DNA of 64,000 nt from NCBI RefSeq assembly GCF_000026545.1, contig NC_011601.1; one strand, given 5' to 3'. The notes below the pieces were generated by a model. It was not told the origin of the DNA and ran no database searches. It saw only the letters and a list, made by a program, of their open reading frames with translations. Positions within the stretch are counted from its first letter, which is position 1; every line of letters starts with the position of its first letter. The DNA comes from Escherichia coli O127:H6 str. E2348/69. Lineage in GTDB: Bacteria > Pseudomonadota > Gammaproteobacteria > Enterobacterales > Enterobacteriaceae. Position numbers and translations under genes: made by a program. Below are positions 27,949 through 28,086 of the stretch, in pieces.

Positions 27949-28086
27949 CAATTCTGGGCGGAGTTAGTGCAGCCTGGTAGAACCGGCAAGCCTTGTGTGG
28001 CGCGGGGTGTGGTGATTTAGCGTGATTCTGGGCGGATTTGTGAGAAATGACCAAAAACGCTTTTTTTTGCGCTTTTTTCTGGGCGC
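27949..28086 (+). repeat. Prophage left-end repeats: three direct copies of TTCTGGGCG (candidate transposase-binding sites)
   Basis: Copies at 27952-27960, 28026-28034 and 28077-28085. Confidence 0.5.

Follow-up and report, generated by a model that had tools for sequence, protein, structure and literature searches.

Repeated motifs at both ends of a Mu-like prophage in Escherichia coli E2348/69: probable transposase-binding sites in a lineage with a 4-bp target-site duplication

The 64,000-nt stretch of DNA under investigation, hereafter referred to as the window, matches the chromosome of E. coli E2348/69 with 100% identity and carries a 35.7-kb Mu-like prophage in eutC. Clustered at the two ends of this prophage are six copies of an octamer, TTCTGGGC, which very probably represent the conserved halves of the transposase-binding sites of attL (L1-L3) and attR (R1-R3). 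Directly observed are the sites, the termini, a 4-bp target-site duplication, a Mu-like layout, the positional conservation of the sites, and a co-variation between their cores and a patch of the transposase. Att sites of the Mu type are of a known kind; the lineage described here is uncharacterised and departs from Mu in both its recognition sequence and the length of its duplication.

The initial annotation had described three direct copies of a repeated motif at the left end (27952, 28026, and 28077) and, at the right end, inverted copies at 63623 and 63647 together with a direct copy at 63596. The exact 9-mer TTCTGGGCG is indeed found at 27952 (+), 28026 (+), 28077 (+), and 63623 (-). These four matches compare with 0.63 expected in the 64-kb window, and four or more copies were observed in none of 100 shuffles of it. 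The remaining two right-end copies have the orientations described. Both read TTCTGGGCT, an 8/9 match to TTCTGGGCG, and they lie at 63596-63604 (+) and 63645-63653 (-), the position of the latter having been off by 1-2 nt. When the spread of the motif over the window was checked, it proved to be far from even: seven copies of TTCTGGGC occur in the 64 kb, and six of them fall within the 226 nt adjoining the two termini, at most 151 nt from the left terminus or 75 nt from the right one. The probability of at least six of the seven copies lying in those 226 nt is ~1e-14. The seventh copy, at 44678 inside the portal gene, has a flank unlike those of the other six and probably arose by chance.

That all of the repeats are a coincidence of chance or composition, or a decayed simple terminal repeat with no sequence-specific role, might be argued from this additional copy inside the element and from the one-mismatch 9-mers that are scattered over the window. 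The counts given above speak against such an origin, as do the flanks, which have an extra GCG half-site in common, and the positions of the motif, which are kept to the nucleotide in lineages with transposases that are only ~45% identical. Chance is thus a vanishingly improbable source of the repeats and is effectively refuted. With a 24-nt matrix, the six sites score 25.5-30.6 bits and the best non-site in the window scores 14.7 bits. In leave-one-out trials over the 127,954 positions of the window, only the five training sites scored above the held-out one, which ranked sixth; the exception was L2, in thirteenth place on account of the 1-nt shift in its flank. The sites are arranged as follows.

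27940-27961 (+), L1 site, ggtagtgttcaaTTCTGGGCgg; core at element bases 18-25
28014-28035 (+), L2 site, gatttagcgtgaTTCTGGGCgg; core at bases 92-99, GCG half-site offset by 1 nt
28065-28086 (+), L3 site, ttttgcgcttttTTCTGGGCgc; core at bases 143-150
63644-63665 (-), R1 site, cttcgcgtttttTTCTGGGCta; core 18-25 nt from the right terminus
63622-63643 (-), R2 site, attggcgcacaaTTCTGGGCgg; core 40-47 nt from the right terminus, contiguous with R1 in a 22-bp step
63584-63605 (+), R3 site, tttagcgtccaaTTCTGGGCtt; core 68-75 nt from the right terminus, inverted with respect to R1 and R2

Each site is bipartite, spans ~20-22 bp, and has the form GCG-N5-TTCTGGGC with the consensus GCG-N5-TTCTG-S-R-C. 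Within the 12 nt examined upstream of the cores, the GCG occupies positions -8 to -6 in five of the six sites, and in L2 it is shifted by 1 nt. R1, R2, R3, and L3 display no mismatch to GCG-N5-TTCTGSRC, whereas L1 has one and L2 has two. A matrix derived from the flanks only places the held-out flanks in the top 0.04-2.4% of the window positions. Given this common flank, TTCTGGGCG is the better-conserved half of a ~20-22-bp bipartite site. The spacing is 74 nt between L1 and L2 and 51 nt between L2 and L3. Note that the flank of L1 carries a private A to T change at 27947, reading GTGTTCAAT as compared with GTGATCAAT in all close relatives. This column is at least 90% conserved across lineages, the change also destroys a GATC site, and it may weaken L1 of the E2348/69 copy. 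Also observed in the left end are two conserved blocks that are not part of the repeats. The first, GCAAGCCTTG..TGGCGCGG, lies in the L1-L2 spacer (27986-28010; left-end alignment columns 52-75), and the second, AAATGA followed by a T-run, lies 5' of L3 (28044-28068; columns 110-134). Possible roles for these blocks include a pac signal, bending by HU or IHF, or a further half-site.

The boundaries of the element were established independently of the motif from empty sites, and they lie 17 nt beyond the outermost copy on both sides; the earlier proposal that the motif supports the element boundaries is thereby borne out. The coordinates are given below.

27935-63670 (+), Mu-like transposable prophage of 35,736 bp, 5'-TGTGGGG...GTTACA-3', defined by empty sites and independent junctions
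27931-27934, left copy of the 4-bp target-site duplication, CACT
63671-63674, right copy of the 4-bp target-site duplication, CACT

In the two aligned empty sites (L001 and L002 of the loci compared) the host sequence reads ...GCAACACACT followed by GCGCTTT.... Together with ~10 independent insertions, these place the 5'-TG of the element at 27935 and its CA-3' at 63669-63670. The left terminus is fixed at the TG at 27935 because the bases preceding TGTGGGG differ between insertions; TGTGGGG itself is invariant in 10 lineages. At the right end, 10 of the 11 independent junctions continue with an A after GTTAC, and thus the element ends with ...GTTACA at 63670. The one exception, L004 (NZ_OY754349.1), has a right junction in which GTTAC is followed by T, with neither the terminal A nor a duplication (locus positions 300 and 34866). 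It is situated between phnJ and a truncated ABC-ATPase gene, and the host DNA between phnJ and phnK is gone. The junctions of L004 have the appearance of a deletion adjoining the prophage.

The insertion splits eutC, which encodes the ethanolamine ammonia-lyase small subunit, within the eut operon into segments at 27507-27934 (-) and 63671-64000 (-). Nearly all other E. coli have an uninterrupted eutL-eutC-eutB arrangement, with the site intact in ~5,380 other complete genomes. Related prophages are present at unrelated sites in 59 of 5,426 complete E. coli genomes, and the insertion loci include eutC, mhpT, melR/melA, yigG, phnJ, ypdF, an RHS gene, and a TonB-dependent receptor gene, among others. 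Insertion at so many unrelated loci is the signature of a transposable phage.

Duplications of 4 bp account for six same-genome pairs of junctions, namely CACT in the window, ATTC, GAGA, AATC, CATG, and CTTG, and for two probable cross-genome pairs, AACC and CACG. The length is unambiguous for the mhpT insertion of L003. As judged against its empty site (L113), the host reads GAGT-ATTC-CGGC, and the junctions are ...GAGTATTC joined to TG and CA joined to ATTCCGGC. Two additional pairs, from a lineage with a ~47%-identical transposase, show the 4-bp duplications ATCT and CGCC (L076/L242 and L077/L241). A model with a 5-bp duplication and a right end of ...GTTAC had agreed with three of the four junctions examined first, but it breaks down at L003, L011/L098, and L017/L104, and it is also ruled out by the A that follows GTTAC in nearly all of the junctions. 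Mu is known to duplicate 5 bp and B3 6 bp, and a scar of 5 or 6 bp in combination with TG-CA ends is a hallmark by which transposable prophages are recognised (PMC8705779). The scar of the E2348/69 element is 4 bp.

For a comparison of the ends between lineages, left ends were taken from loci retrieved with the transposase, the N-terminal 300 residues of which are ~41-92% identical to those encoded in the window. Ten such ends align almost without gaps over 180 nt, with L1, L2, and L3 in identical columns. The invariant columns are those of the TGTGGGG terminus and of the TTyTG of the three cores. The bases following TTyTG are lineage-specific, being GGGC, GGAC/GGAT, or GCAC, with TGCA in one lineage. 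The core type is usually the same at L1, L2, and L3 of a given element, and usually at both of its ends.

From the left ends of the GCAC lineage, a right end of the form TGTA-N14-TCTGCAC-N15-TCTGCAC was predicted, and this 18-base pattern was scanned for in IMG/VR. Seven loci were found, four of them from genomes that had given distant transposase loci, and two of the seven pair with known left junctions of the same genomes via 4-bp duplications. A looser scan with TCTGCAC-N15-TCTGCAC was swamped by chance matches and was set aside for the 18-base pattern. A scan for further L1 ends of the GCAC type yielded no contigs beyond the set already in the comparison. The GCG half-site is present in the GCAC lineage as well, and locus L097 displays the same right-end layout with GGAC cores. 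A blastn search with the left end against 50,697 phage records gave no match; the family has no close sequenced phage among them. No description of the ends of the E2348/69 prophage was found in the literature. In the IMG/VR contigs (L029-L088), the left limit set by most automated calls lies ~230-280 bp 5' of the transposase gene, so that the repressor, Ner, and all of attL are missing, and the left boundaries given in databases for these elements are systematically wrong.

The genes at the left end of the prophage are listed below.

28247-28894 (-), CI-type repressor (immunity), the allele of which does not track the att type
29077-29313 (+), Ner-like HTH_35 regulator, placed by analogy with L003 as annotated in RefSeq, with an allele that likewise does not follow the att type
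29313-31355 (+), MuA-like DDE transposase of 680 residues with Ialpha-, Ibeta-, and Igamma-like N-terminal domains, an rve core, and Mu-transpos_C; the proposed binding protein
29721-29876 (+), transposase codons 137-188, a patch in two versions that co-varies with the att core type
31374-32267 (+), MuB-like AAA+ ATPase (target-DNA activator); Pfam AAA_22 and TniB

Pfam assigns a Mu DNA-binding domain, rve, and Mu-transpos_C to the transposase, and a Mu-type portal is also encoded; the RefSeq annotation of relatives adds Mor, GemA, the gpT head protein, sheath, and baseplate. Broadly, then, the element has the attributes of a transposable phage: a ~36-39-kb genome, the order c-ner-A-B at the left end, and Mu-type morphogenesis genes. 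The immunity module (28247-29550 compared with nt 300-1600 of L003-L026) comprises the repressor, Ner, and residues 1-80 of the transposase, which form its Ialpha enhancer/operator-binding domain. The module has at least four alleles, and these reassort without regard to the att type or to the remainder of the transposase. Directly 5' of R3 lies a 31-codon remnant of a Gin/Pin-type serine invertase, MFIGYVRASTNDQDTDLQRNALNCAGYELIF and a stop codon, at 63460-63555 (+). It is positioned beside tail-fibre and tail-fibre-assembly genes in opposed orientation, at 61191-62533 (+) and 62505-63433 (-). This arrangement looks like a fossil host-range switch of the G-segment type. The same truncation of the invertase is seen in L003, L004, and L005.

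The transposase is colinear with MuA, with 21% identity over 616 residues in a BLASTP alignment from which the DDE residues were read as D308, D374, and E414. With hhalign, the family profile aligns to MuA residues 3-136 (94%, E 1e-7). An AlphaFold2 model of residues 1-300, calculated from a family alignment of 34 sequences, has a mean pLDDT of 82, and its sole meaningful Foldseek match is the Mu transpososome 4FCY (probability 0.99-1.00). The folds of the protein are Ialpha-, Ibeta-, and Igamma-like, and they are accompanied by a DDE core and a Mu C-terminal domain. Residues 137-188 belong to the Ibeta-like region, where they fall on the predicted helices 138-151, 156-165, and 177-190. For the MuA Ibeta recognition helix the alignments diverge, and neither placement is decisive: MuA residues 124-136 are placed on residues 135-147 by both hhalign and BLASTP, and a local alignment places MuA residues 126-159 on residues 161-193 (score 23). 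Recognition of the Mu ends has been assigned to Ibeta and Igamma (PMC3362531).

Among 13 close relatives, residues 137-188 are found in two versions that are 13-14 substitutions apart (T137S, K139T, L142I, V149I, M151Q, (G152E), D156E, I158V, E160V, A162G, D181Q, S182E, S186A, and V188L). The flanks of this patch are essentially identical between the versions except for a shared S108A. Version A is present in all nine elements with GGGC left sites, and version B is present in all four with mostly GGAC/GGAT left sites, L024 being mixed; version A together with GGAC sites was never seen among the 13. The Fisher p value for this association, 0.0014, overstates the independence of the elements because the 13 are related. 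The att site and the patch do not simply travel as a single recombined segment. L012 and L014 are diverged in both att and patch, but the 600-1,100 nt that separate the two match the window with 93-100% identity, and in L019 and L004 the whole block comprising the repressor, ner, and the transposase N-terminus has been swapped with the att and patch types unchanged. The repressor and Ner were also considered as the co-varying partner and were rejected, their alleles not tracking the site type. Taken together, the co-variation of the cores with a patch in the Ibeta-like domain supports the transposase as the putative binding protein of the six sites.

L013, which has version B, lies on a contig whose right end carries three GGAC cores. 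A strict rule of one transposase version for one core at both ends is broken, however, by L008, and probably by L014, in which version B and GGAC left sites are combined with a right end of the GGGC type and the 4-bp duplication is still clean. The variable core bases are therefore not absolute specificity determinants for version B, which to judge from these ends evidently tolerates G or A at the variable position. Variation is concentrated in the patch segment of these transposases, which are otherwise conserved. Over residues 131-195, L015, L018, L022, L023, and L025 display intermediate versions, for example D181Q/S182E without E160V; the left ends of these five contigs are cut off.

A different binding protein, be it the repressor, Ner, a packaging protein that recognizes pac, or host IHF, HU, or Fis, is an improbable explanation for the motifs. 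It would draw on the observations that the whole left 300 nt, and not the cores alone, differs between lineages, including between the A and B types, and that conserved blocks lie between L1, L2, and L3. The pac site of Mu lies in the left end, which would suit a packaging protein, but in Mu it lies in that end only, whereas the motif considered here is found at both ends at equal distances from the termini. With regard to the regulators, L019 and L008 share repressor and Ner alleles yet differ in site type, L014 pairs a Ner like that of the window with sites of the B type, and the repressor-ner operator region has no copy of the motif. Nor would a host factor account for cores that differ between lineages sharing a single host species.

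By the Mu paradigm, then, it is the transposase that would bind the six sites, with its tandem helical domains, one Ibeta-like and one Igamma-like, each taking one half-site. The two ends would be brought together in a transpososome by the subunits at L1 and R1 with the aid of the accessory sites. At each end the DDE core would cut after the terminal CA and join the 3' ends to the target 4 bp apart, with the target DNA delivered by the MuB-like ATPase. Repair or replication would then lead to the 4-bp duplication.

The sites might be genuine att sequences in origin, with the E2348/69 copy itself now an immobile fossil and the motifs mere marks of its boundaries. We consider this unlikely, though much less so than binding by another protein. 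The private change at the well-conserved position 27947 would be in keeping with such a state, as would the occurrence of the prophage at the same eutC site in all three assemblies of the E2348/69 lineage. Against it, the transposase and the MuB-like gene are intact, as is each of the six cores, and the transposase is 95-100% identical per 40-residue bin (85% in one) to the copies in L009 and L011, which are located elsewhere. The truncated invertase is family-wide and is not a private defect.

More broadly, the prophage may belong to an as yet uncharacterised branch of the transposable phages that would combine a 4-bp target cut with naturally re-programmed end recognition; members of this branch occur in E. 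coli and, judging from transposase homology, also in Pseudomonas, Yersinia, and other hosts. A patch of ~50 residues in the Ibeta-like domain would have co-evolved with the last three bases of the att core (GGGC/GGAC/GCAC), giving rise to partly orthogonal pairs in near-identical phages. We regard the case for this proposal as evenly balanced. If it is true, divergent transposase-end pairs could limit cross-mobilisation between co-resident prophages. The co-varying patch and att core provide a small natural system for the study of changes in the DNA specificity of a transposase, and genome engineering might draw on them for orthogonal pairs of MuA-type transposases and ends. In practical terms, the sites and the empty-site comparison yield base-exact limits for a prophage that automated predictors routinely truncate, and the 4-bp duplication matters for prophage searches that are keyed to a 5- or 6-bp scar.

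With respect to known systems, the ends of Tn7 and CAST elements that are bound by TnsB are not of phage origin; they differ in site number and spacing, and the similarity in fold is weaker than that to MuA. The D3112/B3-type Pseudomonas phages ("saltoviruses") are likewise transposable, with TG-CA ends and a DDE transposase plus activator. When compared by transposase, the D3112 group aligns over 93% of the E2348/69 protein but with only ~30% identity, and B3 differs in its 6-bp duplication (PMC8705779). The closest sequenced phage by transposase is Pseudomonas phage VW-6B (MF975721), at 49% identity. Its right end, TGTA-N14-TTCTGGAC-N14-TTTTGGAC, has the same terminus, 18-nt offset, and 22-bp step as that of the E2348/69 prophage, and the order c-ner-A is also the same, but its cores are of the GGAC type and its third right-end site is direct rather than inverted. 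The attL of VW-6B is not usable for comparison because the deposited record starts 53 bp outside the repressor gene.

The initial annotation had likened the repeats to the attL and attR of Mu, and this likeness extends to copy number, spacing, and orientation but not to the sequence of the MuA site. The MuA consensus, YGTTTCAYTNNAARYRCGAAAA, was validated on Mu itself (NC_000929), where a scan of the ends located L1 at 6-27, L3 at 151-172, R1 at 6-27, R2 at 28-49, and R3, inverted, at 56-77. Whereas the sites of Mu match it with 0-1 mismatches (five for R1), the best matches at the window ends have 8-9 mismatches in 20, which is the background of the window. The GCG-N5-TTCTGGGC sites are thus unrelated to the MuA consensus, and TTCTGG is absent from the Mu ends. 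Other differences are the duplication of 4 bp as compared with 5 bp in Mu (PMC8705779), L1-L2 and L2-L3 spacings of 74 and 51 nt as compared with ~104 and 41 in Mu (the Mu figures partly read by eye), and a right end that adjoins a truncated invertase where Mu has gin-mom. The Mu left end has GCAAGCCTGTAGTG at 84-97, which may be set beside the spacer blocks of the E2348/69 prophage. At the right terminus of the GCAC lineage (L241/L242), the first ~17 nt, TGTAGCGCGGCGCGAAA, resemble the TGAAGCGGCGCACGAAA of Mu (L091), a hint that the terminal-proximal half of R1 may be more conserved between families than the distal half.

As in Mu, the termini are TG...CA, and each end carries three sites, the outermost of which keeps a constant short distance from the terminus. 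L1 is set apart from L2 and L3, R2 adjoins R1 without a gap as a second 22-bp unit, and R3 has the inverted orientation. The genes are ordered c-ner-A-B, and the transposase, colinear with MuA, has a MuB-like partner. The Mu paradigm of three sites per end, an inverted R3, and bipartite sites is accordingly extended to a lineage with 21% identity in the transposase. Since the layout is kept at that level of identity, it is the architecture of the ends, and not the recognition sequence, that is the conserved feature.
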